A stretch of DNA of 24,000 nt from positions 16,324-40,323 of the forward strand of contig CAYHEX010000005.1 in the NCBI GenBank assembly GCA_964355365.1. The letters run 5' to 3'. The DNA is from an uncultured Solibacteraceae bacterium. Lineage in GTDB: Bacteria > Acidobacteriota > Vicinamibacteria > Vicinamibacterales > SCN-69-37. This document shows positions 1 through 12,049 of the stretch, in pieces. The notes beneath the pieces are model-generated. The model ran no database searches, was not told where the DNA came from, and saw only the letters and a program-made list of their open reading frames with translations. The stretch's first letter is position 1. Every line of letters starts with the position of its first letter. The translations under genes and the position numbers were made by a program.

Positions 1-419
1 CGCTCTATCCGTCCAGCGGCACCATTCAGCAAGGCATCATGGAAGTGGGGCAAGTGCGCATGGGCGCCGGCGTCACGCCGTGGTCGGCGCACGCGCTCTA
101 CGAGAGCCAGTCGCCGCTGCACAACGCGACCAACATCAAGACGCCGTTCATGATCCTGCACGGCACGGCCGACACGGCCGTCGACTGGAGCCAGGGCCTC
201 GAGTTCTACGCCGCAGCACGCCGCCTCGGCAAGTCGGCGATCTTGCTGTCGTATCCCGACGAGCCCCACCACCTGGCGAAGCACGAGAATCAGAAGGACT
301 TTCAAATTCGCATGAAGCAGTTCTTCGATCACTACCTCAAGGGCACGGCGGCGCCGCTGTGGATCACCGAGGGCGTGACGCAGGTCAAGAAGGGTCAGGA
401 CCCGGCGATCATCAAGTGA
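1..419 (+). CDS. S9 family serine peptidase (prolyl oligopeptidase / acylaminoacyl-peptidase type), C-terminal fragment; 5' end lies upstream of the window
   Basis: The reading frame is open from base 3. It carries C-terminal alpha/beta-hydrolase signatures: TPFMILHGTADTAVDW (catalytic Asp region) and SYPDEPHHL (catalytic His region). Stop TGA at 417-419. Confidence 0.8.
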   Translation, partial: LYPSSGTIQQGIMEVGQVRMGAGVTPWSAHALYESQSPLHNATNIKTPFMILHGTADTAVDWSQGLEFYAAARRLGKSAILLSYPDEPHHLAKHENQKDFQIRMKQFFDHYLKGTAAPLWITEGVTQVKKGQDPAIIK

Positions 420-486
420 AATGGGGAGTTTTCCGCGACGTTGGGAAATTATCCGGCGCGGCGTGGACGTCCCTGTCTCTGTATCG

Positions 487-2043
487 ATGATTCTTCGACA
501 CGGACGCACGGCACGCGTCTTGCTCATAAATGAACTTATCGTGAATCGGCCAACTCAATTCTCCTCGGTGACGCTGGCGGTGTGCTTGTTCGTATTGGGA
601 CTGTTGGCATCGCCTAACGAGGCGGGTGCACAACAGCCGCCCCCTGCGACATCAACGAGCAAGTCGCCGCAGTGGCTGCTCACCACGCGAGACACCGCGC
701 GTGCCGAGGTGTGGCGGTTCTTTCAGCCGAACCCTGGCGGCGGCAACCCCGACTACGAGTTCCTCGCCAATCGGCTGAACATCGACGCCAAGCGGACGAC
801 GGCCAGGACTGAAGTTACCGTCGGCCTTCAGCATGTCGGCTTCGTTGGGCTGCCAACTGCTGCCGTTGGCCCGGGCCCGCTGGGAACAGGCGCGCTGTAC
901 TTCGATCAAGGCGGCCGCAGCCAGCATCCGTCCCGCCTCTTTGTGCGTTACGCGAACCTCAAGGTGAAAGACGTGCTGCCGGGCTTCGACCTCCAGGCAG
1001 GGCGCATGGCGTACGGCAGCGGCGCTGAGTCAGTCACAACTGACGCCAAGCTCGAACTCGTTCGGCGTCAACGCGTGAGCGCCCGACTCGTCGGCGAGTT
1101 TGACTGGTCGCTCTACCAGCGCAGTTTCGATGGCGTGCGCGTGGACCTTCGACGCCCGCGCTGGCAATTGACCTCGATGGTGATGCAGCCCACGCACGGT
1201 GGCTTCTCCAGCAGCGCCGGGCAGATGATGCCGCATGTGCTCCTGGCCGGGGCCGTCGTGACGGCGCGTCCGGCCAAGATCCGCGCGAGTTGGCAGGTCT
1301 TCGCCATTCACTACGCCGACTCGCGACGCATGGCCTCGCGGCCCGACAATTCTGGAGCGACCGCTGCACGCGTGGATGTTGATGTGACGTCGAGCGGCGG
1401 CGCCTGGATCGGCACGCACAAGACCACGGGCGCCGGCGGAGGAGAGTTTGACGGCGTGGTGTGGCTGGCCGGCCAGACCGGGTCCTGGTATGGACAGCGC
1501 CATCGCGCGTGGTCGCTGACGGCGGAGGGCGGCTATCAACTCAACACCGCCCGATGGAAGCCCTGGCTACGCGCCGGCCTGCTGTCATCGAGCGGAGATG
1601 CCGACGGCCAGGACGCGCGCCACGGCACGTTCTTCCCCGTCCTGCCCACAATGCGGAAGTTCTCGCAGACGACGATGTACAGCACGATGAATCTGCACGA
1701 CGCCTTTGTGCAGTTGCAGCTTCGTCCATCGGCGTCGGTGAACGCCCGGATCGACGTCCATCGGCTGGCGCTCGCGTCAGCCGCGGACCTCTGGTACACC
1801 GGCAGCGGCGCGACGCTCGCCAGCGGCACGAACTTCGGTTTTGCGGGACGCCGTTCGAACGGCTCAACAAATCTGGGCACGTCGCTCGAGGGATCGATCG
1901 ACTACGCTGTAACTCCACAGTGGTCGGTGAACGCATTTGCCGCGCGAATGAACGGCGGTCCGGTGGTGAGCGGGACCTTCGCGGGCCGGCGATTGTGGTT
2001 TGTCTACCTCGAGAGCGTGTTGCGGTTTGACTGGAGGCGGTGA
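487..2043 (+). CDS. Putative outer-membrane beta-barrel porin, possibly of the alginate-export (AlgE-like) family; first gene of the nap operon
   Basis: Signal-peptide-like segment VTLAVCLFVLGLLASPNEAGA/QQ. There are no cofactor motifs. Many amphipathic strand-like stretches are present (FVRYANLKVKD, WSLTAEGGYQL, WSVNAFAARMNG, LWFVYLESVLRF). The N-terminal region (ARAEVWRFF...DYEFLANRLNIDAK...VGLQHVGF) resembles AlgE-like porins by eye. Its stop TGA (2041-2043) overlaps the napD start. The start is uncertain: the ORF opens at 421, with ATG at 487 and GTG at 541. CDS confidence is high; the family assignment is only about 0.4. Confidence 0.65.
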   Translation: MILRHGRTARVLLINELIVNRPTQFSSVTLAVCLFVLGLLASPNEAGAQQPPPATSTSKSPQWLLTTRDTARAEVWRFFQPNPGGGNPDYEFLANRLNIDAKRTTARTEVTVGLQHVGFVGLPTAAVGPGPLGTGALYFDQGGRSQHPSRLFVRYANLKVKDVLPGFDLQAGRMAYGSGAESVTTDAKLELVRRQRVSARLVGEFDWSLYQRSFDGVRVDLRRPRWQLTSMVMQPTHGGFSSSAGQMMPHVLLAGAVVTARPAKIRASWQVFAIHYADSRRMASRPDNSGATAARVDVDVTSSGGAWIGTHKTTGAGGGEFDGVVWLAGQTGSWYGQRHRAWSLTAEGGYQLNTARWKPWLRAGLLSSSGDADGQDARHGTFFPVLPTMRKFSQTTMYSTMNLHDAFVQLQLRPSASVNARIDVHRLALASAADLWYTGSGATLASGTNFGFAGRRSNGSTNLGTSLEGSIDYAVTPQWSVNAFAARMNGGPVVSGTFAGRRLWFVYLESVLRFDWRR

Positions 2044-2267
2044 TGTCGGTCCGTAGCTACTTGGTTTATCCCGCACCTGGTCAACGCGACGCGGTCATGG
2101 CGTCACTCAAGGCCACCGGCGATGTCTTCCCCGCCGAACAGCACGATGTGCTCGTGCTTGTGGCCGAGCAGGATGACGATCCCGAGGCGGATCGCGCGTT
2201 TGACGAACGTCTGCACACCATTCCCGGCGTCATGTCGGTCGCGTTTGTGGCCGGGTTCTCGGAGTAA
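2040..2267 (+). CDS. napD: NapD, chaperone for the NapA Tat signal peptide
   Basis: A 75-aa protein directly upstream of napA. It shows the NapD-like pattern SYLVY...(V)LVLVAE...ERLHTIPGVMSVAFVAGF, matching E. coli NapD SLVV...IVVVEAE...VEGVLAVSLVY. The start is GTG 2040 or ATG 2043, overlapping the porin stop. Confidence 0.85.
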   Translation: MMSVRSYLVYPAPGQRDAVMASLKATGDVFPAEQHDVLVLVAEQDDDPEADRAFDERLHTIPGVMSVAFVAGFSE

Positions 2268-2270
2268 CTC

Positions 2271-4607
2271 ATGGAAGGCACAGTAGATCGCCGCACCGCG
2301 CTCAAGCAGTTGGCCGCGCTCTCGGCATTTGTCGTGGCTGAGCAACTCATGCCCGGCATCGTGTTTGCGGCATCACCAATCGATCTGGCTCCGCCGATCG
2401 ATCAGCAACTGGTGGACCTCACGTGGAAGAAGACGCCCTGCCGATTCTGCGGCGTGGGGTGCGGCCTGCTGGTCGGCGTGAAGGACGGACGAGCGGCGGC
2501 CGTCAAGGGCGATCCCGACTCGTCGGTGAACAAAGGACTCGCGTGCGTCAAGGGCTACCATTCGATTCTCGCGTTGTATGGCGCGGATCGTCTGAAGACC
2601 GCGCTCGTGCGCAAGAACGGCGTCTTGACACCCACACCGATCGGGGAGGCACTCGATCTGGTGGCCCGCACGATGCAGGACACGATCGCGAAGAACGGCA
2701 AAGACTCGGTCGCGATGTACGGCTCGGGTCAGTGGACGATACCGGACGGCTACGCGGCATCGAAGTTCATGCGCGCCGGCATTGGCACCAACAACATCGA
2801 AGCGAACGCGCGTCTCTGCATGTCGAGCGCGGTCACCGGATTTATGACGTCGTTCGGCCAGGACGAGCCGATGGGCTGCTATGAAGACATCGACCACGCC
2901 GATGTCTTCGTGCTGTGGGGCAACAACATGGCCGAGATGCATCCGGTCCTGTTCTCGCGGCTGCTCGATCGACGACTGAAGAAGCCGGGCACGCTCATCA
3001 TCGATCTGGCGACGCGCACGACCCGCACGAGCCAGGCCGCCGACCGGTCGATTCTCTTCAAGCCGCAGTCCGATCTGGCCGTGGCCAATGCCATCGCGCT
3101 CGAAATCGTGCGGAAAGGATGGGTCGACAAGGTCTTTGTCGAACGCCACGTGTCGTGCCACACCGGCACCACCGGCATCGGCTACGGCACCGAGGACAAG
3201 TTCGCGTTCACCGATCAGCCCAAACCAGCGACGTTCGAGCAGTACGTGAAACTGCTCGAAGACTACACGCCTGAAAAGGCCGAGGCCATCTCCGGCGTGT
3301 CGGCGCGCGATATCCGCTATCTGGCGTCGCTCTACGGCGACCCCAGGCGCAAGGTCATGAGCGTGTGGTGCATGGGTTTCAACCAGCACACGCGCGGCAC
3401 GTGGATCAACAACCTCGTCTACAACATCCACTTGCTCGTCGGAAAGATCTCGACACCCGGCAACAGCCCGTTCTCGCTGACGGGCCAGCCGAGCGCGTGC
3501 GGTACCGTGCGCGAGGTCGGCACGTTGACCAATCGCCTGCCGCACGGCGAGGTCACCAACGAACACGACCGGCAGAAAGCCGCCGAGATCTGGAAGGTGC
3601 CCGTCGAGAAGATTCCGGCCAAGCCCACGTACCACACCGTCGAGATGTTTCGCGCACTCGATCGAGGCGACATCAAGTTCATGTGGATTCAGGTCACCAA
3701 TCCGATGGTGACCATGCCGAAGCTCAAGCGCTATCGAGACGGGACAAAGAAGGAAGGCCGCTTCATCGTGGTGTCGGACGTGTACCCGACGCCGACGACC
3801 GACATCGCGGACGTCGTGCTGCCGTCGGCGATGTGGATCGAGCGCGAAGGCATGTTCGGCAACTCAGAACGCCGAACGCAGCATTTCCACAAACTCGTTG
3901 AGCCTCCGGGCGAGGCGATGAGCGACACTTGGCAGATCATCGAAGTGGCGCGACGCATGGGGCACGGCCAGCTGTTTCCCTGGAGTCAGGCCGACCATAT
4001 CGAGCAGATCTACAAGGAGTACGGACGTTTTCATGAAGGGCCCGATCACCAGATGGCCCCGTACGAAGAACTGCAGCGGCGGCCCGGCGTGATGTGGCCG
4101 TTCGTCAACGGCAAAGAAACCAAGTGGCGCTACCATGCAGCCACCGACCCGGCCGCAAAAGGCACCGGCTTCGATTTCTACGGCAAACCCGACCACAAAG
4201 CGTGGATCTGGTTTCGACCGTATGAGCCGGCCGCCGAATCGCCCGATGCCGACTACCCGTTCTGGCTCTGCACGGGCCGCGTGCTCGAACACTGGCATTC
4301 CGGTTCACTCACGCGGCGCATCCCGATCCTGCACCAGGCGGTGCCGCACGCGTATGTGGAACTGCATCCCTCCGACGCGACGCGACTTGGCGTCAAGACG
4401 GGCGATCGGATTCGGCTGACGTCGCGGCGCGGATCGCTGGTGCTGCCCGCGCTGATCGATGGCCGTGGTCGACCGGCCGAACGGCAGGTCTTTGTGCCGT
4501 TCTTCGATGAGTCACTGCTCATCAATGAACTCACGCTCGATGCGTTCTGTCCGATCTCGAAGCAGCCCGACTACAAGAAGTGCGCCGTCAAGGTCGAGCG
4601 CGCATGA
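2271..4607 (+). CDS. napA: Periplasmic nitrate reductase catalytic subunit NapA (Mo-bisPGD, 4Fe-4S)
   Basis: Twin-arginine signal DRRTALKQLAALSAF. N-terminal 4Fe-4S motif CRFCGVGCGLLV...C(V)KG. Mo-ligand region ARLCMSSAVTGF. The 778-aa length is typical of NapA. GGAG lies 6 nt upstream of the ATG. Confidence 0.95.
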   Translation: MEGTVDRRTALKQLAALSAFVVAEQLMPGIVFAASPIDLAPPIDQQLVDLTWKKTPCRFCGVGCGLLVGVKDGRAAAVKGDPDSSVNKGLACVKGYHSILALYGADRLKTALVRKNGVLTPTPIGEALDLVARTMQDTIAKNGKDSVAMYGSGQWTIPDGYAASKFMRAGIGTNNIEANARLCMSSAVTGFMTSFGQDEPMGCYEDIDHADVFVLWGNNMAEMHPVLFSRLLDRRLKKPGTLIIDLATRTTRTSQAADRSILFKPQSDLAVANAIALEIVRKGWVDKVFVERHVSCHTGTTGIGYGTEDKFAFTDQPKPATFEQYVKLLEDYTPEKAEAISGVSARDIRYLASLYGDPRRKVMSVWCMGFNQHTRGTWINNLVYNIHLLVGKISTPGNSPFSLTGQPSACGTVREVGTLTNRLPHGEVTNEHDRQKAAEIWKVPVEKIPAKPTYHTVEMFRALDRGDIKFMWIQVTNPMVTMPKLKRYRDGTKKEGRFIVVSDVYPTPTTDIADVVLPSAMWIEREGMFGNSERRTQHFHKLVEPPGEAMSDTWQIIEVARRMGHGQLFPWSQADHIEQIYKEYGRFHEGPDHQMAPYEELQRRPGVMWPFVNGKETKWRYHAATDPAAKGTGFDFYGKPDHKAWIWFRPYEPAAESPDADYPFWLCTGRVLEHWHSGSLTRRIPILHQAVPHAYVELHPSDATRLGVKTGDRIRLTSRRGSLVLPALIDGRGRPAERQVFVPFFDESLLINELTLDAFCPISKQPDYKKCAVKVERA

Positions 4608-5308
4608 TCGAGAACCGCAGTCGTTACCGCTATGTGCGCATCGGCATCGCCGCGGCGCTCATGGTGTCGACCGTCTTCGTGGTCGGACGCAGTATGCGAT
4701 CAGCGACGACGCCGGCCGTCATCCCCCTGACAGGCGCAGGCGAGGCTCCGCCGATTCGCACCGAGTCTGGCGTGTTCGAGCGATCGGAGCTCGCCCTCGA
4801 CTACCGGACAGCACCCGACGGAGCCACAGGCACGCGGACGCTCGCGACGTTTGTCTCACGACGCGCGTATCCAGGTGCGCCACCGATCATTCCGCACCCG
4901 CTGGCTGACCCGACGACATTCGGCGGCCGCGCCTGCCTCGAGTGTCACGGCGACGGTGGTTGGGTACAGAAGTTCTCAGCCTTTGCGCCAGTAACGCCGC
5001 ACCCGGAACTGATCAACTGTGTTCAGTGCCACGTGCCCAGAACGGTCACGTCGCTGATGCGGGGATCCACCTTTGTTCCCGCAGTCGAACCGCCCATCCA
5101 TCAGGCGGCGCTCAAGGGCAGTCCGCCTGCAATTCCGCATGACCTGCAGATGCGAGACAACTGCCTGACATGTCATGCCGGCCCGGCCGCGGTGCGTGAG
5201 ATCCGCGTGACCCATCCCGAGCGCAGCAACTGCCGGCAATGCCACGCGCTCGGCGCGTTCCGTTCGCTGCCCTTCAGCCGTTCGGCGGCCCTGGACGGAA
5301 AGCAGTGA
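4604..5308 (+). CDS. napB: Tetrahaem NapB-like cytochrome c: two tandem NapB dihaem units behind an N-terminal membrane anchor
   Basis: ATG 4604 overlaps the napA stop (ATGA). Hydrophobic anchor: VRIGIAAALMVSTVFVVG. Unit 1 is GAPPIIPH...CLECHG...APVTPHPE...CVQCHVP...GSTF, which matches E. coli NapB QPPMIPH...CLQCHG...APRISPTH...CLQCHVP...GNTF. Unit 2 is GSPPAIPH...CLTCH...RVTHPE...CRQCH. There are four CxxCH motifs in total. Confidence 0.85.
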   Translation: MIENRSRYRYVRIGIAAALMVSTVFVVGRSMRSATTPAVIPLTGAGEAPPIRTESGVFERSELALDYRTAPDGATGTRTLATFVSRRAYPGAPPIIPHPLADPTTFGGRACLECHGDGGWVQKFSAFAPVTPHPELINCVQCHVPRTVTSLMRGSTFVPAVEPPIHQAALKGSPPAIPHDLQMRDNCLTCHAGPAAVREIRVTHPERSNCRQCHALGAFRSLPFSRSAALDGKQ

Positions 5309-5946
5309 CGGTGCGGCGTGTCGCGAAGGCGTGCGCGTGGTTGGGACTGACAGCCGTCGTGGCATGCGGCCGCATGAGCCAGCCGCACGCCACGCCGAAG
5401 GTCGCCTCGATCATCGAAGAGGCCGAGGCCCCTGGACCGGGGCCAACGGTGTCATCAGCACCGTTCCTGAAGAACCGGCGCCTCGTTGATGTCGAGGCGT
5501 TGCCGATCGCCACCGACGGCGCGCCCTTTCAATTGCTGTCACGCGAGACGCAGTTGCAGAAAGCGCCCTGCGCCAATTGCCACACGCAGCCGCTCGAGCA
5601 ACTGCAACGCGCGCGTCCGAAGGGCAAAGCGCTGGCGCACTGGGCCGTCACGATGCAGCACGCCGCCGCGCCGGTGATGTCGTGCGCGACCTGTCATCAG
5701 CGCGACTCCCCGACGCTGCTCCACACGCTATCGGGCCAGACAGTGGCGATTGACCACGCCTATCAGATGTGCGCCCAGTGCCACGCGACGCAGGCCGCCG
5801 ACTGGGCGGGGGGCGCGCACGGCAAGCGCGCCGGCGGATGGGCGCCGCCGCGCGTGCGCTACAACTGCACCGAGTGCCACAACCCGCATCGGCCCAAGTT
5901 CGAGTCGCGCTGGCCGGCGGGACCGGGACGGACGCAGACCCCATGA
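5305..5946 (+). CDS. Tetrahaem c-type cytochrome, probable lipoprotein (NrfB / cytochrome c3-class electron shuttle)
   Basis: Four CxxCH motifs: CANCH, CATCH, CAQCH, CTECH. Signal plus lipobox-like sequence RRVAKACAWLGLTAVVAC. GTG 5305 overlaps the napB stop (GTGA). GTG 5311 has better spacing from GGAAAG. The ATG 5239 in the track would overlap napB by 70 nt and is less likely. Confidence 0.85.
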   Translation: MTVRRVAKACAWLGLTAVVACGRMSQPHATPKVASIIEEAEAPGPGPTVSSAPFLKNRRLVDVEALPIATDGAPFQLLSRETQLQKAPCANCHTQPLEQLQRARPKGKALAHWAVTMQHAAAPVMSCATCHQRDSPTLLHTLSGQTVAIDHAYQMCAQCHATQAADWAGGAHGKRAGGWAPPRVRYNCTECHNPHRPKFESRWPAGPGRTQTP

Positions 5947-5974
5947 CCACTCACCAGACGCGACGGAGACTGCA

Positions 5975-7003
5975 ATGAGCACGATGCGACGGATTTTTGG
6001 ACTGCGTCCCGTGCCTGTCGACGCGCCGGCCGAATCCGCCGAGGCCGCGGCCAAGCCCACCGGGACGGACGTTCAGGCAGTGCTGGATCGGCCGCTGGAT
6101 CGACGCGAAGCCCTCTCGCGTTTCGCGACGGGGTTGATCGCCGGCATGGGCGCGACCCAGGCCGCGTGCAGCCCGTTTGCCACAGGCGAAGCCAAGGAAC
6201 TCTCCGAACTGAACTGGCAGGAGTATCTGCAGAAGAACTTCCGCCTGATGACCGACGACGAGAAAGACGCGACGGTCGAGCGCCTGCAACGCCTGCACGC
6301 ACTGCGCACGGGACAGCACATCACGGTGAGCGCCGCAGAGGCGCAAGACAACGTGCTGTACGGATACGCATTCAACATCTCGAAGTGCCAGGGCTATATG
6401 GACTGCGTCCAGGCGTGCAAGAAAGAGAACAACCAGGACCGCGCGTCCGACATGGCGTACATCCGGATTCACGAGCTGAAGAAGGGCAGCATGGATTTCG
6501 CCGAGGCCGACGACGCCTTCGTGCATCAAGTGCCGGCCGCGGGCCACTTCTACCTCGGCACGCAGTGTTTCCATTGCCAGAATCCGCCGTGCGTCGACGT
6601 GTGCCCGACCAAGGCTACCTGGATGGAAAAAGACGGCATCGTCGTCGTCGACTACAACTGGTGCATCGGTTGCCGGTACTGCATCGCCGCGTGCCCGTAC
6701 GACGCCCGCCGGTTCAACTGGAGCGAGCCGGTCGTGCCGAAGGATGAAGTGAATCCGAACCAGCACTACCTGGGCAATCGCCTGCGTCAGAAAGGTGTTG
6801 TCGAGAAGTGCACGTTCTGCATTCAGCGCAGTCGCGCAGGACAGAACCCGGCTTGCGTGGAAGCGTGCCCCACCGGCGCGCGCATCTTCGGCAACCTGCT
6901 GGATCCTGACAGCGAAATTCGATGGGTGCTCAAGCACAAGAAAGTGTTCCGGCTGAAAGAGGACCTGGGAACGGATCCCAAGTTCTGGTACTTCATGGAT
7001 TGA
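5975..7003 (+). CDS. Tat-exported iron-sulfur subunit of NrfC/PsrB/HybA (ActB/QrcC-like) type, four cluster-binding groups
   Basis: ATG 5975 is preceded by GGAGAC. Twin-arginine region LDRREALSRFATGLIAGMGA. Cys groups: CQGYMDCVQAC (second Cys replaced by Tyr), CFHCQNPPCVDVCP, CIGCRYCIAACP, CTFC...CVEACP. The track start at 5750 would overlap the preceding cytochrome gene and adds a Pro/Arg-rich non-homologous extension. Confidence 0.9.
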   Translation: MSTMRRIFGLRPVPVDAPAESAEAAAKPTGTDVQAVLDRPLDRREALSRFATGLIAGMGATQAACSPFATGEAKELSELNWQEYLQKNFRLMTDDEKDATVERLQRLHALRTGQHITVSAAEAQDNVLYGYAFNISKCQGYMDCVQACKKENNQDRASDMAYIRIHELKKGSMDFAEADDAFVHQVPAAGHFYLGTQCFHCQNPPCVDVCPTKATWMEKDGIVVVDYNWCIGCRYCIAACPYDARRFNWSEPVVPKDEVNPNQHYLGNRLRQKGVVEKCTFCIQRSRAGQNPACVEACPTGARIFGNLLDPDSEIRWVLKHKKVFRLKEDLGTDPKFWYFMD

Positions 7004-7022
7004 CCGTGAGACGAGCACACCG

Positions 7023-8246
7023 ATGATGCGGGCACTGGCAGGGTTCATACGCGACGGATTGCGCGAGGCCACGACGGGTGGGCGGGCCTACCACCTGTGG
7101 ATGGCCGCGCTGACGCTGTTGATGTGTGTGGGCGCGTGGGCGTATTCCGTGCAGCTCGATGAGGGTCTGAAGGTCACCGGCATGAACAACTCGGTGAGCT
7201 GGGGACTCTACATCTCGAACTTCGCGTTCCTGGTCGGCGTGGCGGCCGCGGCCGTCATCCTCGTGTTGCCGACCTACATCTTCAAAGATGTTGATTTCGC
7301 CCGCGCGGTGTTGGTGGGTGAAGCGCTCGCGGTCGCCGCCGTAGTCATGGCGATCAGCTTCGTCGTGGTCGATGTCGGCGGCCCGGCACGTCTGTGGCAC
7401 CTCATTCCGATGGTGGGCATTCTCAACTGGCCGGCGTCGCTGCTCAGCTGGGACATCCTGGTGCTGAACGGTTATCTCGCGCTGAATCTGATGATTCCGT
7501 TCTACATCCTGTTCAGCCACTATCAGGGACACAAACCGAATCCGCGGCTCTACGTGCCGTTTGTGATCCTGTCGATCCTGTGGGCCGTGTCGTTGCATCT
7601 GGTCACCGCGTTTCTGTTCGCCGGTTTGCCGGCGCGGCCGTTCTGGAACAGCGCGCTGCTCGGCCCGCGGTTTCTGGCCACAGCATTCACCGCCGGGCCG
7701 GCGCTGATCATCATCGTGCTGGCCCTGATTCGACGGTTCAGCGAGATGACGGTGGAGGATGACACCATCCACAAGCTCGCGCTCGTGGTGACGGTCGCCG
7801 CGCAAGTCACGCTGGTGATGCTGCTTTCGGAGCTGTTCACGGAGTTCTATCGCGACACCCACCACGGCCAGAGCGCGCGGTACTTGTACTTTGGCCTTGA
7901 TGGACACTACCGGCTGGTCCCATGGATCTGGACGTCGATTGGCCTCAATGTCGCGGCCACCGTCGCGCGCAGCCTGCATCGGGTGCGCCGGCACCTGCCG
8001 TCGCTCTATGTCGCCTGCGCCGCGCTGTTCGTCGCGATCGAAATCGAAAAGGGCATGGGCACCATCATTCCGGGTTTCATTCCGGAGCCCTGGGGCAACA
8101 TCGTCGAGTACTCGCCGACCTGGGTCGAGTGGACCGTGTCGCTGGGCATTCTGGCCGTCGGTTGCTTTGTCTTCACGGTGCTGGCCAAGGTGGCCACGCC
8201 CATCGAATCGGGCCGTCTCCGGTGGCGCGGCGGCAGCCGCGGCTGA
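7023..8246 (+). CDS. NrfD/PsrC-family integral membrane quinol-interacting subunit
   Basis: A 407-aa polytopic hydrophobic protein. Its N-terminal region (GGRAYHLWMAALTLLMCVGAWAYSVQLDEGLKVTGMNNSVSWGLYISNFAFLVGVAAAA) is typical of the NrfD/PsrC/ActC family. It directly follows the FeS subunit gene. Confidence 0.9.
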   Translation: MMRALAGFIRDGLREATTGGRAYHLWMAALTLLMCVGAWAYSVQLDEGLKVTGMNNSVSWGLYISNFAFLVGVAAAAVILVLPTYIFKDVDFARAVLVGEALAVAAVVMAISFVVVDVGGPARLWHLIPMVGILNWPASLLSWDILVLNGYLALNLMIPFYILFSHYQGHKPNPRLYVPFVILSILWAVSLHLVTAFLFAGLPARPFWNSALLGPRFLATAFTAGPALIIIVLALIRRFSEMTVEDDTIHKLALVVTVAAQVTLVMLLSELFTEFYRDTHHGQSARYLYFGLDGHYRLVPWIWTSIGLNVAATVARSLHRVRRHLPSLYVACAALFVAIEIEKGMGTIIPGFIPEPWGNIVEYSPTWVEWTVSLGILAVGCFVFTVLAKVATPIESGRLRWRGGSRG

Positions 8247-8261
8247 ACCGAGGCTCGCCGG

Positions 8262-9557
8262 CTACAGCAGCCCCGCGCGTCGCCGCAGATCCGTGAAGCG
8301 CGCGTCATCGCGCAGCGGATCGAGCGCCGGATCCACGTTGAGGTAGATGATCCAGTACGAGCGGTCCACGAGCGCCTTCTCCAGCCACTCGAAGGCGGCG
8401 TCGCGGTCGCCGAGCGCGGCGTGGATGGCCGCCATCTGGTAGGGCGACACGAACGTGTCGCGCGACCGCTCGCTGAGGTCGGCCATCTCGGCCTCCGCCT
8501 GCGCGCGGTCGCCCATCATCGCGTGCACGAGACCGAGCGCGGCCACCACGTCGCGATCGTTCGAGAGCCCCTTCGAAATCAGCAACTCCTCGATCGCCTG
8601 CGCGTGCCGACCTTGCTGCGCCAGCGCCAGCCCCATGCGGAAGTGCGCCATGGAGAATCCGGGATCGATCGCCACCACCCGCCGGTACTGGCGCACAGCG
8701 GCGTCGAAGTCGCGCGCGTAGTAGAACGGGTAGCCCGCAATGGTCGCGATGATGCGCGACAAAGGATCGAGCGCCTGCGCGCGGTCGAGCGCGGCGTGCG
8801 CTTCGGCAAACCGCCCCATGGCCGTGAGGTAGATGCCGTGGCGCTGGTGCGCGTCGCCGTATTCGGGATTCAGTTCGATCGCGCGGCGGAACGCGCGCTC
8901 GGCGGCGGGCCAGTTCCATTCGTAGAAGAGCTCGACGACGCCCAGCGAGTTGTGGGCCTCGGCCAGCGCCGGATCGAGCTTCAGCGCGGTCATCGCCGCG
9001 GCCTTGGACTTGGGAAACACGTCGCGCGGCATCGAGGCGCCGTAGAGGCTCAGGAGCGCATACGCATCCGCCAGGCCCACCCATGCGGGCGCGAACGTCG
9101 GATCCGCATCCGTCGACTGCAGAAACAGCGTAATCGCTTCGCCCAGCGTCTTGGTCAAGCGCTTGTTCAGGAAATGGCGGCCATTGAGAAACAGCTGATA
9201 GGCCTGCGAGTTCTCGCCGGCGGCCGGCAGCGGCTCACGGACCTCGGCCGAGAAGCGGTAGCCCCGGCCGGGAATCGTGATGATGGACTTGTGCTCCTGT
9301 GGCAGTTCGCCGAGCGCCCGGCGAATCACCGACACGTTCTGCGTGAGATTGGCCTCCTCCACGAATGTGTCGGGCCAGATTGCCTTGAGCAGTTCGGCCT
9401 TGGTGACGACCCGGTCGCGGTGCTCGACGAGGAACAGGAGGATGTCGAAGGCCTTTGGGACCAGGGGCACAGGCTGCCCGGCACGAAACAGCAGCCGTTT
9501 GGCCGCGTCGATGCGGAAGTCGTGGAACTCAAAGACCCGAACGTTCGCTGCCGCCAT
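8262..9557 (-). CDS. Transcriptional regulator: OmpR/CadC-type winged-helix DNA-binding domain fused to TPR repeats (no receiver domain, no TM segment seen)
   Basis: N-terminal segment FEFHDFRIDAAKRLLFRAGQPVPLVPKAFDILLFLVEHRDRVVTKAELLKAIWP...IRRALGE...ITIPGRGYRF is a Trans_reg_C-type winged helix. The C-terminal roughly 300 aa contains repeated A..AF.RA(IL)ELDP TPR-like units. Confidence 0.85.
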   Translation of the reverse strand: MAAANVRVFEFHDFRIDAAKRLLFRAGQPVPLVPKAFDILLFLVEHRDRVVTKAELLKAIWPDTFVEEANLTQNVSVIRRALGELPQEHKSIITIPGRGYRFSAEVREPLPAAGENSQAYQLFLNGRHFLNKRLTKTLGEAITLFLQSTDADPTFAPAWVGLADAYALLSLYGASMPRDVFPKSKAAAMTALKLDPALAEAHNSLGVVELFYEWNWPAAERAFRRAIELNPEYGDAHQRHGIYLTAMGRFAEAHAALDRAQALDPLSRIIATIAGYPFYYARDFDAAVRQYRRVVAIDPGFSMAHFRMGLALAQQGRHAQAIEELLISKGLSNDRDVVAALGLVHAMMGDRAQAEAEMADLSERSRDTFVSPYQMAAIHAALGDRDAAFEWLEKALVDRSYWIIYLNVDPALDPLRDDARFTDLRRRAGLL

Positions 9558-9578
9558 GTGGTTTTTACATTTTCTTAG

Positions 9579-9604
9579 AAGTCCTGAGGCCCTGTGAAGG
9601 ACTT
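9579..9604. promoter_or_regulatory. Perfect 7-bp inverted repeat AAGTCCT-N12-AGGACTT in the divergent regulator/lipoprotein intergenic region; candidate operator or 5'-UTR hairpin
   Basis: Arms at 9579-9585 and 9598-9604 are exact reverse complements. They lie in the AT-richer 94-bp gap between the regulator start (9557, minus) and the lipoprotein-1 start (9652, plus). Confidence 0.3.
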
Positions 9605-9651
9605 TCGGCGATGCCGATCCTTATAGTCAGCCCTTGTCAGGAGACATCCTC

Positions 9652-10467
9652 ATGAATCGAACGGCAGCCATCATCGTGTGGTCGGTGCTCGGCCTCGGCA
9701 CTTTCGGGTGCGGGGGCGGCGGCTCGTCGCCGACCAGCCCGTCAACATCAACGACCACCACCACGACGACCACGCCAACCACGCCGGCCACCACGCCGGT
9801 GACGTGGAACTTCAACGGATCCGTCTGGACGGCGTCCAGCACGGCGCCGGCCTGCCCGAGCCCGCTGAATCTGAGCTTGCCGATCGATCTGTCCAGGGTG
9901 ACGTCCATCCTGTATCCGGGCCAGACTCGCGGGGAGTACAAGCCTCACGGCGGCTTCCGATTCGATCAGCCGGGGCAGGCAAACGACGTCGCGGTGACGG
10001 TCCCGATGGCGTCCACGATCTTTCGCGGGGCCCGCTACCTGGTGGGCGGCGAAATCCAGTATGAGTTCGACTTCATCAATGAATGCGGACTGATGCATCG
10101 CATCGGTCACCTGCGCGAGTTGAGCACGCGCTTCGCGGCGCTGGCGGCGACGCTGCCGGCAGCCGTTGAGGGGGACTCGCGCACCACGAACTTTTCGGCC
10201 GGGCTGACGGCCGCGGCCGGTGAAGCGCTCGGCACCGCTGTCGGCCTGCGAACCACCAACAACGTGTTCTTCGACTGGGGCGTGTATGACTTGCGCCAGC
10301 GCAACAGCGCGAGCACCAACGCCACCTGGTTTGCAGCGCATCCGGGCGAACTGGCGCCATACGCCATCTGCTGGCTCGACGCCCTCACCTCGGCGAACTC
10401 CGCGGCCGTCAGGGCGCTTCCGGCCGCTGATCCGACCGCCGGTCGCACCAGCGATCTCTGCAGGTAG
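9652..10467 (+). CDS. Secreted lipoprotein 1: Cys-GGGGS-Thr/Pro linker plus a roughly 220-aa four-Cys domain with an M23/LytM-like core (canonical HxxxD and HxH motifs not conserved)
   Basis: ATG 9652 is preceded by CAGGAGAC. Signal peptide MNRTAAIIVWSVLGLGTFG/C. Linker CGGGGSSPTSPSTSTTTTTTTTPTTPATTP. Core segments: YKPHGGFRF...VTVPMASTIF...GLMHRIGHL...AAAGEALGTAVG...FFDWGVYD. It is roughly 50 percent identical by eye to lipoprotein 2. Confidence 0.8.
   Translation: MNRTAAIIVWSVLGLGTFGCGGGGSSPTSPSTSTTTTTTTTPTTPATTPVTWNFNGSVWTASSTAPACPSPLNLSLPIDLSRVTSILYPGQTRGEYKPHGGFRFDQPGQANDVAVTVPMASTIFRGARYLVGGEIQYEFDFINECGLMHRIGHLRELSTRFAALAATLPAAVEGDSRTTNFSAGLTAAAGEALGTAVGLRTTNNVFFDWGVYDLRQRNSASTNATWFAAHPGELAPYAICWLDALTSANSAAVRALPAADPTAGRTSDLCR
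9709..9798 (+). repeat. Copy 1 of the shared lipobox-Cys/GGGGS/poly-Thr-Pro linker coding module (ACC/ACG-rich)
   Basis: It shares near-identical runs with copy 2, for example cgaccaccaccacNacgaccacgccaaccacgccg. Downstream of the module, copies 1 and 2 also share acgtggaNcttcaacggatccg. The antisense reads as poly-Val pseudo-ORFs. Confidence 0.8.
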
Positions 10468-10479
10468 ACAGAAGGCCCA

Positions 10480-11292
10480 ATGCCGCGCAGAACCTGTCGT
10501 GCGATCGTCATCCTGCTCGTTGGTGTCAGCGCCGCGTGTGGCGGCGGCGGAAGCTCCCCCATCTCGCCGTCAACCACCACGACCACCACCACAACGACCA
10601 CGCCAACCACGCCGACGGCGACCTCGGTCACGTGGAGCTTCAACGGATCCGCGTGGGCGGCCTCCGGCACCGCACCGGCTTGTCCGAGTCCGCTCGTGTT
10701 CTCGGCGCCGGCCGACGTGACCAAAGCCACCGCCGTGCTCTATCCAGGGCAGACCCGCGGCGGCAACTACAAGGCGCACGGCGGACTGCTCTTCGCGAAC
10801 GGCACGAACACCACCATCCAGGTCACCGCCCCGATGGCCGGCTACGTGTACCGCGGGGTCCGGTACATCGAATCCGGCGAAGTGCAGTACCTGTTCGACA
10901 TCATCAACACCTGCGGCGTGATGCATCGCTTCGACCACCTGCTCACGCTGAGCTCGCGGTTCCAGGCGATCGCCGACACGTTCCCGCCGGCCGGCGCGAG
11001 TTCGGCGACGACGAACGTCGCGGCCGGCCAGAACGTGACCGAGGGCGAAGTGATCGCCACTGCCGTCGGGTTTCGCGTCAGCGGCAACACCTCATTCGAC
11101 TGGGGCGCGTACGATCTGCGCCAGAAGAACGCCGCCAGCGCCGACCCGGCGTGGCTCGCGGGCCATTCCGGCGAACAGGCGCCGTACGCCCTCTGCTGGC
11201 TCAACAACCTGTCGACGTCGAGCGCCGCGCTGTTGAGGGCGCTGCCCGGCGGAGACTTCATCGCGGGGAGAACCAGTGACTACTGCAAATAA
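10480..11292 (+). CDS. Secreted lipoprotein 2, paralogue of lipoprotein 1
   Basis: Signal peptide MPRRTCRAIVILLVGVSAA/C. Linker CGGGGSSPISPSTTTTTTTTTTPTTPTATS. Core segments: YKAHGGLLF...VTAPMAGYVY...GVMHRFDHL...VTEGEVIATAVG...SFDWGAYD. The four Cys residues are conserved with lipoprotein 1 (PACPSPL, IN.CG.MH, YA.CWL, SD.C). Confidence 0.8.
   Translation: MPRRTCRAIVILLVGVSAACGGGGSSPISPSTTTTTTTTTTPTTPTATSVTWSFNGSAWAASGTAPACPSPLVFSAPADVTKATAVLYPGQTRGGNYKAHGGLLFANGTNTTIQVTAPMAGYVYRGVRYIESGEVQYLFDIINTCGVMHRFDHLLTLSSRFQAIADTFPPAGASSATTNVAAGQNVTEGEVIATAVGFRVSGNTSFDWGAYDLRQKNAASADPAWLAGHSGEQAPYALCWLNNLSTSSAALLRALPGGDFIAGRTSDYCK
10537..10626 (+). repeat. Copy 2 of the linker coding module
   Basis: The protein register is the same as copy 1: Cys at residue 20, Trp of VTW at residue 52. 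Confidence 0.8.
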
Positions 11293-12049
11293 GGCAACGA
11301 CGGCGCTGCTGGCCGTGCTGTGTGCGCTCACGATGGCGTGTGGCGGTGGCGGAAGCGCCCCGACATCGCCGTCGACCACCACGACGACCACGACCACACC
11401 AACGACGACGACACCGACGCCCACAACGCCGAAGGAGATGGTCATCTCCTACTTCGCGGTCGATCTGGCCTCGTCGCCGTTCCTGGCCACGTCGGCCTTC
11501 AACGTCACCGATTGGCCGGCGCGCGTGTATCCAGCCATTCACGTGTTTGGTAAGACCTATCAGGGTCAGGTCGAATCCGCGCTCACCTTCGATCTGCTGC
11601 GGATCGGCACGCCGATCTACGCGCCGTTCGACGGCACGATTCAGGACGTGGTCAACCAACCGACGTCCTGCGACACGGAGATGTACTTCGTCGACGGGAA
11701 TAACGACTCGCAGAATCACCTGTCGTACGACCATGTGATTCCGCTCGACCGATTCCGCACGCGCGGCGCGGCGTTCCGGGCCGGCGAGCAGATTGCGACC
11801 ATCGGCGCGTGGGAGTGCACCGAGCGGTTCGGCCGCGTGGAGATGATGGTGATCAACGCGCCGACGGGCAGCACGACGCCAACGCGTTCGCGGTGCCCGC
11901 TGGTGCTGCTCGACACCACGAAGCGGTCGTCGATGCTGGCGCTGATCTCGAGCGTGATGGACTGGTGGAACAGCCTCGGCCCCGCGAGCGCGTACACCGC
12001 GAGCGAACGCACGAACGGACTCTGCGCTACGGAGTTTGGCCCGCTGTAG
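11276..12049 (+). CDS. Secreted lipoprotein 3: same signal and linker module, different M23-like domain (clear GTPIYAPFDGTI signature, metal ligands substituted)
   Basis: GTG 11276 is preceded by GGGGAG and overlaps the end of lipoprotein 2 by 17 nt. Signal and linker: ALLAVLCALTMA/CGGGGSAPTSPSTTTTTTTTPTTTTPTPTTP. The M23-like order of motifs is LTFDLLRIGTPIYAPFDGTI...LSYDHV...FRAGEQIATIG...GRVEMMV, with VEMM where HxH is expected. Confidence 0.75.
   Translation: MTTANKATTALLAVLCALTMACGGGGSAPTSPSTTTTTTTTPTTTTPTPTTPKEMVISYFAVDLASSPFLATSAFNVTDWPARVYPAIHVFGKTYQGQVESALTFDLLRIGTPIYAPFDGTIQDVVNQPTSCDTEMYFVDGNNDSQNHLSYDHVIPLDRFRTRGAAFRAGEQIATIGAWECTERFGRVEMMVINAPTGSTTPTRSRCPLVLLDTTKRSSMLALISSVMDWWNSLGPASAYTASERTNGLCATEFGPL
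11339..11431 (+). repeat. Copy 3 of the linker coding module
   Basis: tgtggcggtggcggaagcgccccgacatcgccgtcgaccaccacgacgaccacgaccacaccaacgacgacgacaccgacgcc encodes CGGGGSAPTSPSTTTTTTTTPTTTTPTP. Confidence 0.75.

Follow-up and report, generated by a model that had tools for sequence, protein, structure and literature searches.

A cluster of genes in a 24,000-nucleotide stretch of DNA from an uncultured Solibacteraceae bacterium (the window) encodes a periplasmic nitrate reductase (Nap) together with two tetrahaem c-type cytochromes, an iron-sulfur (FeS) protein and an integral membrane subunit of the NrfD family. The genes from 2043 to 8246 probably form a single respiratory unit, in which Nap would be fed from menaquinol through a module of the DsrOP type and not through NapC or NapGH, the only quinol dehydrogenases named for Nap (PMC12780646; PMC5317091). 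The original prediction, made from the letters of the window, had proposed that a trio of lipoprotein cytochrome, FeS protein and NrfD-family subunit serves as the quinol dehydrogenase of Nap. Conserved synteny, reciprocal checks, flanks free of NapC and NapG and the residues of a putative quinol site support this proposal.

Organization and conservation of the operon

The window holds seven co-directional, tightly packed genes between 487 and 8246 (Table 1). The original prediction spoke of eight genes, where its own list has seven; its account of their common direction and tight packing holds, and its junctions, when re-read in the sequence, were all as stated. The porin and napD genes meet in GTGATG (2040-2045), and the napD stop codon (2265-2267) is followed by 3 nt and then by the napA ATG at 2271. 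The gene for the tandem NapB, a chain of two NapB-like repeats abbreviated (NapB)2, overlaps napA by ATGA (4604-4607) and the lipoprotein cytochrome gene by GTGA (5305-5308). Gaps of 28 nt (5947-5974) and 19 nt (7004-7022) precede the FeS and NrfD genes, respectively. The same seven genes were called by an independent gene caller, whose public calls on the 122.7-kb source metagenome contig give products of 518, 74, 778, 234, 213, 342 and 407 amino acids (aa) in the order from porin to NrfD. Profile hidden Markov models (HMMs) confirmed the gene identities that had been proposed, NapD with a score below its cut-off.

Table 1. Features of the nap gene cluster; positions are counted from the first letter of the window.
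Feature	Position	Strand	Evidence
Porin, Alginate_exp family, with Sec signal peptide	487..2043	+	Pfam PF13372, 99.3 bits; 518 aa
NapD-like chaperone, 74 aa; start overlaps the porin stop codon	2043..2267	+	Pfam NapD
NapA, catalytic subunit with molybdenum-bis(molybdopterin guanine dinucleotide) (Mo-bisMGD) and [4Fe-4S]; twin-arginine translocation (Tat) signal DRRTAL	2271..4607	+	NF010055
Tandem NapB, tetrahaem, two NapB-like repeats	4604..5308	+	Pfam NapB, 35.4 bits vs cut-off 25.1
Tetrahaem c-type cytochrome, lipoprotein	5305..5946	+	Four CxxCH and a lipobox
Four-cluster ferredoxin, Tat-exported, periplasmic, DsrO-like	5975..7003	+	Fer4_11; 15 conserved Cys
NrfD-family integral membrane subunit, DsrP-like, about 10 helices	7023..8246	+	Pfam NrfD, 128.8 bits

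Searches with the tandem NapB gave 1268 related proteins in the protein collection and matches in 401 species genomes. Gene neighbourhoods were surveyed in the best 80 loci of these 401 species (tblastn; each locus judged as far as its contig reaches; loci are cited below by L numbers). The genes for NapA, (NapB)2, lipoprotein cytochrome, FeS protein and NrfD-family subunit occur in the same order and on the same strand in 80/80 loci, with napD upstream in most, and the median gaps across the loci are 3, 3, -4, 27.5 and 24.5 nt. The arrangement is far beyond chance. Carriers are labelled Acidobacteriota, Gemmatimonadota, Calditrichia, Rokubacteria, Bacteroidota and others, at least six phyla. 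Cultured carriers are found in the Flavobacteriaceae and Cytophagales, for example Zhouia, Tamlana, Algibacter, Lutibacter and Fulvivirga.

The link was also checked reciprocally. Four further loci, picked via the NrfD-family subunit or the lipoprotein cytochrome, likewise carry the full nap cluster; those picked via the cytochrome belong to a Caldilineaceae metagenome-assembled genome (MAG) and a Methylomirabilota MAG. In a neighbour-joining tree the nap-linked NrfD proteins form an exclusive clade (73/73). Two signatures mark this branch: a Cys-to-Tyr change in group I of the FeS protein, and a cytochrome that is a lipoprotein.

No further gene family is conserved across the flanks of the 80 loci. 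Crp/Fnr regulators occur as accessory neighbours and so, in Flavobacteriaceae, do molybdenum-cofactor genes in divergent orientation. In the Caldilineaceae MAG (L087; 3868-4437, 11652-12344) a resolvase flanks the cluster and a Crp/Fnr regulator follows it, a hint that the unit may have been transferred horizontally as a whole; such transfer would fit its patchy spread over phyla. The NrfD gene is followed directly by nrfH-nrfA in three Flavobacteriaceae (L035:14126-16236, L062:12892-15000, L075:12834-14945); the L075 proteins score 660 bits vs 595 for NrfA and 157 vs 134 for NrfH. Judged by gene content, the nap cluster plus nrfHA is a compact nitrate-to-ammonium locus in these three organisms.

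The NrfD-family subunit and the FeS protein

The NrfD-family subunit scores 396.4 bits with the NCBIfam model of DsrP (cut-off 350) but only 42 with QrcD (570), 27 with TtrC and 21 with NrfD (348). The FeS protein reaches 202.5 bits with DsrO (200), 153 with QrcC (400) and 132 with NrfC (378); the scores of the two subunits with the TtrB and TtrC models are far under the cut-offs. The nearest solved structure to the membrane subunit is ActC (6F0K_C), and the FeS protein matches PsrB (E 1e-33) as well as ArrB and ActB in the PDB.

The quinol site was mapped with the residue list of Calisto and Pereira for Rhodothermus marinus ActC (PMC8076601). The invariant residues D117, S139 and D144 of the nap-linked subunits occupy the alignment positions of H139, S164 and D169, which belong to the quinol site of ActC. 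The invariant K343 takes the gate position, which is held by R395 in ActC and by Lys329 in DsrP1. ActC D253 is not conserved, its place being taken by Leu in the window subunit. Thus, the subunit has both features expected of the NrfD type: helices 1-4 carry the residues of a quinol site on the periplasmic side, and helix 8 has a basic residue at the gate. It is proposed to be the site of menaquinol oxidation.

The start of the FeS protein is probably the ATG at 5975, favoured over a GTG at 6080 on the basis of an upstream GGAG and the choice of the gene caller. The Tat motif DRREAL (DRREALSRF followed by a hydrophobic stretch) is then at residue 42, and another RR pair occurs at residues 5-6 (MSTMRRIF). 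With 15 conserved Cys in place of 16, the protein probably has one cluster that differs from a standard [4Fe-4S] cluster. The affected motif is that of group I, which reads CQGYMDCVQAC in the window (residues 138-148; 6386-6418). The pattern C.GYM[DN]C..AC is found in 74 of 75 nap-linked orthologues, the remaining one having CRGYLEC; the second group I Cys is replaced by Tyr in 75/75, and groups II-IV are complete. FeS proteins of related stand-alone trios have the full four-Cys group I motif. In four-cluster proteins the group I site holds the cluster farthest from the membrane. In the nap-linked proteins, to judge from the motif, this site may hold a [3Fe-4S] or an unusually ligated cluster.

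NapA and NapD

The product of 2271-4607 had been identified as NapA in the original prediction, and the identification is borne out by an equivalog-level score with NF010055 (946 bits vs cut-off 904), by the Tat motif and by the cofactor ligands, all of which are kept: C57, C60, C64 and C92 for the [4Fe-4S] cluster, and the Mo-ligand Cys in the motif NARLCMSSA, which aligns with the Mo-Cys motif of Cupriavidus necator NapA. The best PDB matches are NapA structures of the heterodimeric type (3ML1_A, E 8e-244), and the protein is about 57% identical to Cupriavidus necator NapA. Relative to the NapA proteins of C. necator, Escherichia coli and Rhodobacter sphaeroides it has a deletion of about 43 residues, located at window residues 570-580 (about 3980-4010) and opposite C. 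necator residues 550-603. Desulfovibrio desulfuricans NapA aligns with it in one piece.

That this NapA homologue is something other than a respiratory nitrate reductase, acting on another oxyanion, in redox balancing or in nitrate scavenging, is barely plausible. The score with TIGR01706 falls just under its cut-off (929.4 vs 930.55), the 43-residue deletion would fit such a divergence, and one carrier has been reported nitrate-reduction negative (see below). But NF010055 scores above its cut-off, the identity to C. necator NapA is about 57% with every cofactor ligand in place, and the adjacency of nrfHA in some loci fits a pathway from nitrate through nitrite to ammonium.

The NapD-like chaperone gives a weak Pfam match (E 9.8e-5; 22.8 bits vs a gathering score of 28). 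A homologous small open reading frame (ORF) is found directly upstream of napA in 69/80 loci.

The two cytochromes

The tandem NapB has four CxxCH motifs and four invariant additional His (H98, H133, H179 and H204). Its family profile matches NapB (1OGY_B, E 4e-5) over both haem motifs, and its two halves align to each other with 36% identity (E 3e-9). A hydrophobic segment occupies residues 10-28, and AlphaFold2 predicts a helix at residues 2-34, with block-mean values of the predicted local distance difference test (pLDDT) of 79-97 over residues 1-30. This N-terminal helix is probably a membrane anchor, a cleaved signal peptide being the alternative. Some homologues are about 299 aa long (P0028, P0031; L085:7349-8248); an alignment of P0028 shows that its additional residues form a third NapB-like repeat, so that this homologue is predicted to bind six haems.

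The lipoprotein cytochrome also has four invariant His besides those of its haem motifs (H112, H119, H172 and H195), kept in every lineage examined. Thus, every haem in both cytochromes has a matching invariant distal His. The lipobox residue Cys21 is invariant in 23 aligned orthologues and at least 90% conserved in an alignment of 29 sequences. Sequence and profile searches of the PDB with this cytochrome gave no meaningful match. Its proposed place is between the FeS protein and (NapB)2, as the link between the two.

Other routes of electrons to Nap

A six-frame scan of the 24 kb found CxxCH only in the two cytochromes and CxxCxxCxxxC only in the FeS gene. NapC, NapG, NapH and NapF are not encoded in the window, as the original prediction had noted, and neither NapC nor NapG was found in 787 kb of flanks around the 80 loci.

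Nap could instead be fed by (NapB)2 acting as a NapC analogue, or by a NapC, NapGH, cytochrome bc complex or alternative complex III (ACIII) encoded elsewhere, with the trio being a separate device such as a reverse-running quinone reductase like Qrc. The layout of (NapB)2, an N-terminal helix followed by four haems, is NapC-like, a faint match to NrfH (22 bits) was seen, and in Campylobacter the Qcr complex is an alternative feed for Nap (PMC6195509). This explanation is nevertheless quite improbable. The repeats of (NapB)2 are NapB-like and not NapC/NirT-like, an unrelated or redundant trio would not stay joined to napA across phyla through junctions of 3 to 28 nt, and subunits of the DsrP type are now thought to oxidize quinol.

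Relationship to known systems

Canonical Nap systems combine NapAB with NapC, with NapGH in Wolinella, or with NapM in Desulfovibrio and Caldithrix. The window system shares with them NapA, a putative NapD-like chaperone, a haem donor of the NapB type, the periplasmic location and the Tat-dependent export. It differs from them in having no NapC, NapG, NapH, NapF or NapL, in a NapB that is tandem-duplicated and has an N-terminal helix, and in the tetrahaem lipoprotein, FeS protein and NrfD-family subunit that take the position of the quinol dehydrogenase.

The original prediction had likened the trio to NrfBCD, Qrc and ACIII. The likeness holds for the general design: all of these have a subunit with haem c, a protein with four clusters and, for the quinone site, a subunit of the NrfD family that carries no cofactor. 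The nearest named relatives are others, namely DsrO and DsrP and the stand-alone "DsrOhPh-tetrahaem" modules. Membership in NrfBCD, Qrc (QrcABCD) or ACIII was rejected on HMM scores far under the cut-offs and on missing accessory subunits. The window operon has no pentahaem NrfB, no molybdopterin-like domain of the QrcB/ActB kind, a single NrfD-like subunit, and no ActD, ActE or ActF; moreover, the incomplete FeS motif is that of group III in ActB but of group I in the window protein. In one locus, on a 3-Mb contig (L085:1-5054), genes for a molybdopterin-like protein, an NrfD-family protein and a small cytochrome stand in an ACIII-like arrangement immediately upstream of the nap cluster; napA is split there, probably by assembly frameshifts.

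With DsrJOP of the DsrMKJOP complex, the window operon shares an FeS protein and a membrane subunit that score best on DsrO (borderline, 202.5 vs 200) and DsrP; the Zhouia orthologues give 197.6 bits for DsrO and 420 for DsrP. The gate Lys is as in DsrP1, and the proposed direction of electron flow, from quinol through P and O to a haem protein, is the same. The differences are a tetrahaem lipoprotein in place of the trihaem DsrJ, the loss of one Cys from group I of the FeS protein, and a proposed acceptor, NapAB, that is periplasmic whereas DsrC is cytoplasmic. No dsrM, dsrK, dsrJ, dsrAB or dsrC was found in the window or among the genes conserved next to the cluster in the 80 loci, and the filing of the FeS/NrfD pair as DsrOP was rejected since no other dsr gene lies alongside. 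The NCBI Prokaryotic Genome Annotation Pipeline names orthologues from Vicinamibacterales and Bryobacteraceae MAGs (P0126, P0191) "DsrMKJOP subunit DsrP". Because no other dsr gene accompanies these orthologues, the name is probably a systematic mis-annotation.

An HMMER scan of 1.84 billion representative sequences found the module family to be compact, with 244 members at E < 1e-30. The closest relatives outside nap clusters, at 46-49% identity of the NrfD subunit, are stand-alone cytochrome-FeS-NrfD trios. By BLASTP the window proteins are 36% (cytochrome, E 2.5e-25), 55% (FeS) and 48% (NrfD) identical to the stand-alone trio of L089, and 31% (5e-16), 48% (7e-102) and 35% (2e-80) identical to that of Ca. 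Electrothrix aestuarii (L090). Thus, all three window subunits are homologous to their counterparts in these trios (E from 5e-16 to 6e-135). The deltaproteobacterial L089 (6474-12621) has two different cytochrome-FeS-NrfD trios in tandem, beside a 12-haem cytochrome and three phage-type integrases.

The cable-bacteria locus was described under the names "DsrOhPh-tetrahaem" and "candidate alternative complex III", with no function assigned, and also occurs in organisms lacking sulfur metabolism (PMC13047784; PMC10926707); a link to nitrate reductase is not drawn in these papers (PMC13047784). In composition it matches the window trio: besides the NrfD subunit, both have an FeS protein exported by Tat and a tetrahaem cytochrome whose haems are of the bis-His type. 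The loci of this family stand alone, with the order TMH1-FeS-NrfD-tetrahaem (cytochrome last) in cable bacteria; their group I motif has all four Cys, and their cytochrome is not a lipoprotein. The window trio, in contrast, lacks TMH1 and is joined to napDA-(NapB)2.

These relatives raise the question of whether the trio has a general role as quinol:cytochrome c oxidoreductase, in effect a small ACIII that serves several periplasmic acceptors, with NapAB as one co-located client. Homologous trios standing alone in other lineages, one of them beside many multihaem cytochromes, point in this direction, as do the general role proposed for the cable-bacteria complex (PMC13047784) and the nrfHA genes downstream in three loci. 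NrfH, however, is itself a quinol dehydrogenase for NrfA. The trio of the nap-linked clade never occurs apart from napA, either in the synteny sample or in the four reciprocal checks, and this clade has signatures of its own in the FeS group I motif and the lipoprotein cytochrome. A general role for the nap-linked trio is therefore considered unlikely.

A search of the literature outside subscription journals found no description of a napDA-(NapB)2-cytochrome-FeS-NrfD operon. A review of the NrfD family includes no Nap-associated member and never mentions nitrate reductase. The generic precedent is that of "FeS/membrane-anchor plus multihaem cytochrome" quinol oxidase modules. For the planctomycete Lacipirellula, one sentence reports that NapA has as its neighbour a fusion of an FeS subunit with an NrfD-like membrane subunit (PMC6995999), and MAGs from a tunnel biofilm have ACIII-like clusters downstream of nap (PMC10732223). 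These fused FeS-NrfD or ActD/CcoP-containing clusters, for which neither a tandem NapB nor a tetrahaem lipoprotein is reported, are set apart from the window operon by their descriptions only.

Proposed electron path

In the proposed path, menaquinol would be oxidized at a periplasm-facing site of the NrfD-family subunit, with release of the protons to the outside. The electrons would enter the four clusters of the Tat-exported FeS protein. The lipoprotein cytochrome, with its four bis-His haems, would take them over and hand them on to the membrane-anchored tandem NapB, which has four haems as well. They would finally reach the [4Fe-4S] cluster and Mo-bisMGD of NapA, where nitrate would be reduced to nitrite. 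NapD would mature NapA, and the porin encoded upstream may let nitrate cross the outer membrane. We infer the order of the carriers (that of the two cytochromes included), a physical complex, the type of quinone and the physiological role from gene linkage. An electron cryomicroscopy (cryo-EM) preprint on DsrMKJOP describes quinol oxidation at DsrP, electron transfer to DsrO and on to the haem subunit, and protons going to the periplasm (bioRxiv 10.64898/2026.08.25.746951). This direction, together with the structure of the operon, supports a chain running from menaquinol through the NrfD-like subunit, FeS protein, lipoprotein cytochrome and tandem NapB to NapA.

Several observations weigh against a dedicated menaquinol-to-Nap unit. 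Nap-free homologous trios occur in a deltaproteobacterial MAG, in a second MAG of the same label, in an unclassified metagenome contig and in cable bacteria, and the module is therefore not intrinsically Nap-specific. The NapD score is under the Pfam threshold (22.8 vs 28), and the AlphaFold2 models of both cytochromes are poor, with a pLDDT of 56.9 for the lipoprotein cytochrome and 48.3 for the tandem NapB, of which only the N-terminal helix is confident. Upstream of the cluster in L079 is a weak NapH/MauN-like ORF (69.6 bits vs cut-off 213), and an ACIII-like cluster adjoins the nap cluster in L085. A napC, a napGH or a cytochrome bc/ACIII route may also be encoded elsewhere in the genome, beyond the window and the flanks. 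Phenotypes were sought in species descriptions. The sole usable datum was for the carrier Fulvivirga kasyanovii (L060), which was scored nitrate-reduction negative (comparative table in PMC8489838); tests of this kind are usually aerobic.

A further question is whether the unit conserves energy. The drop from menaquinol to nitrate is about 0.5 V, and NapC-dependent Nap is regarded as non-electrogenic. Nitrate reduction uses protons on the side where quinol oxidation frees them, so energy could be conserved only if the NrfD-like subunit acted as a pump. There is some, if limited, likelihood that the DsrP-like subunit makes Nap energy-conserving through proton translocation along the polar network of the NrfD fold, comprising the K343 gate and many invariant charged residues, and that a function can thereby be assigned to the DsrOhPh-tetrahaem family.

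Porin and neighbouring genes

The porin is an outer-membrane beta-barrel and a candidate nitrate/nitrite channel, to go by its family. A related Alginate_exp porin is present in 34/80 loci (for example L060:5080-6441), in 23 of them directly upstream and on the same strand, and different Alginate_exp subtypes take the equivalent pre-nap position in about half of the loci. The window subtype is seen only in L003 among the 80 loci. An HMM built from the porins of Bacteroidota loci did not detect porins of the window type, and the porin is therefore treated as accessory and not as a core component.

The window has a GC content of about 65%. The neighbour upstream of the cluster, ending at 419, is an S9 peptidase unrelated to the operon, and the rest of the window likewise has unrelated genes, including a GH95 enzyme, a decarboxylase, an aldehyde-oxidase-type enzyme and others. 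On the opposite strand, 8262-9557 (-) encodes a regulator with a Trans_reg_C domain (OmpR/CadC-type DNA-binding) and TPR, convergent on the end of the operon; a regulator of this type is beside the nap cluster in 0/80 other loci. Positions 9634-12049 hold three co-directional ORFs of about 271, 270 and 203 aa (public gene calls) with no Pfam match. A consensus scan of 1-9700 for promoters and terminators found sites in numbers not above those in shuffled sequence and was uninformative on transcription units.

Implications

If the proposed path is correct, the trio would be a third class of Nap quinol dehydrogenase, beside NapC and NapGH. Its carriers (Acidobacteriota, Gemmatimonadota, Flavobacteriaceae and other Bacteroidota) are menaquinone-using groups dominant in soils and on marine particles, and reconstructions of the nitrogen cycle from genomes that expect napC or napGH would misjudge them. 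The DsrP label in the NCBI pipeline could in turn give false signals of dissimilatory sulfur metabolism in surveys.

The nap link provides the first concrete hypothesis on what the orphan DsrOhPh-tetrahaem module does. Since NrfD-type subunits are suspected ion translocators, it also reopens the question of direct energy conservation by Nap-type respiration. Should the energy-conserving reading be true, a function as quinol:periplasmic-cytochrome oxidoreductase would follow for the whole DsrOhPh-tetrahaem family, including the complex of cable bacteria.

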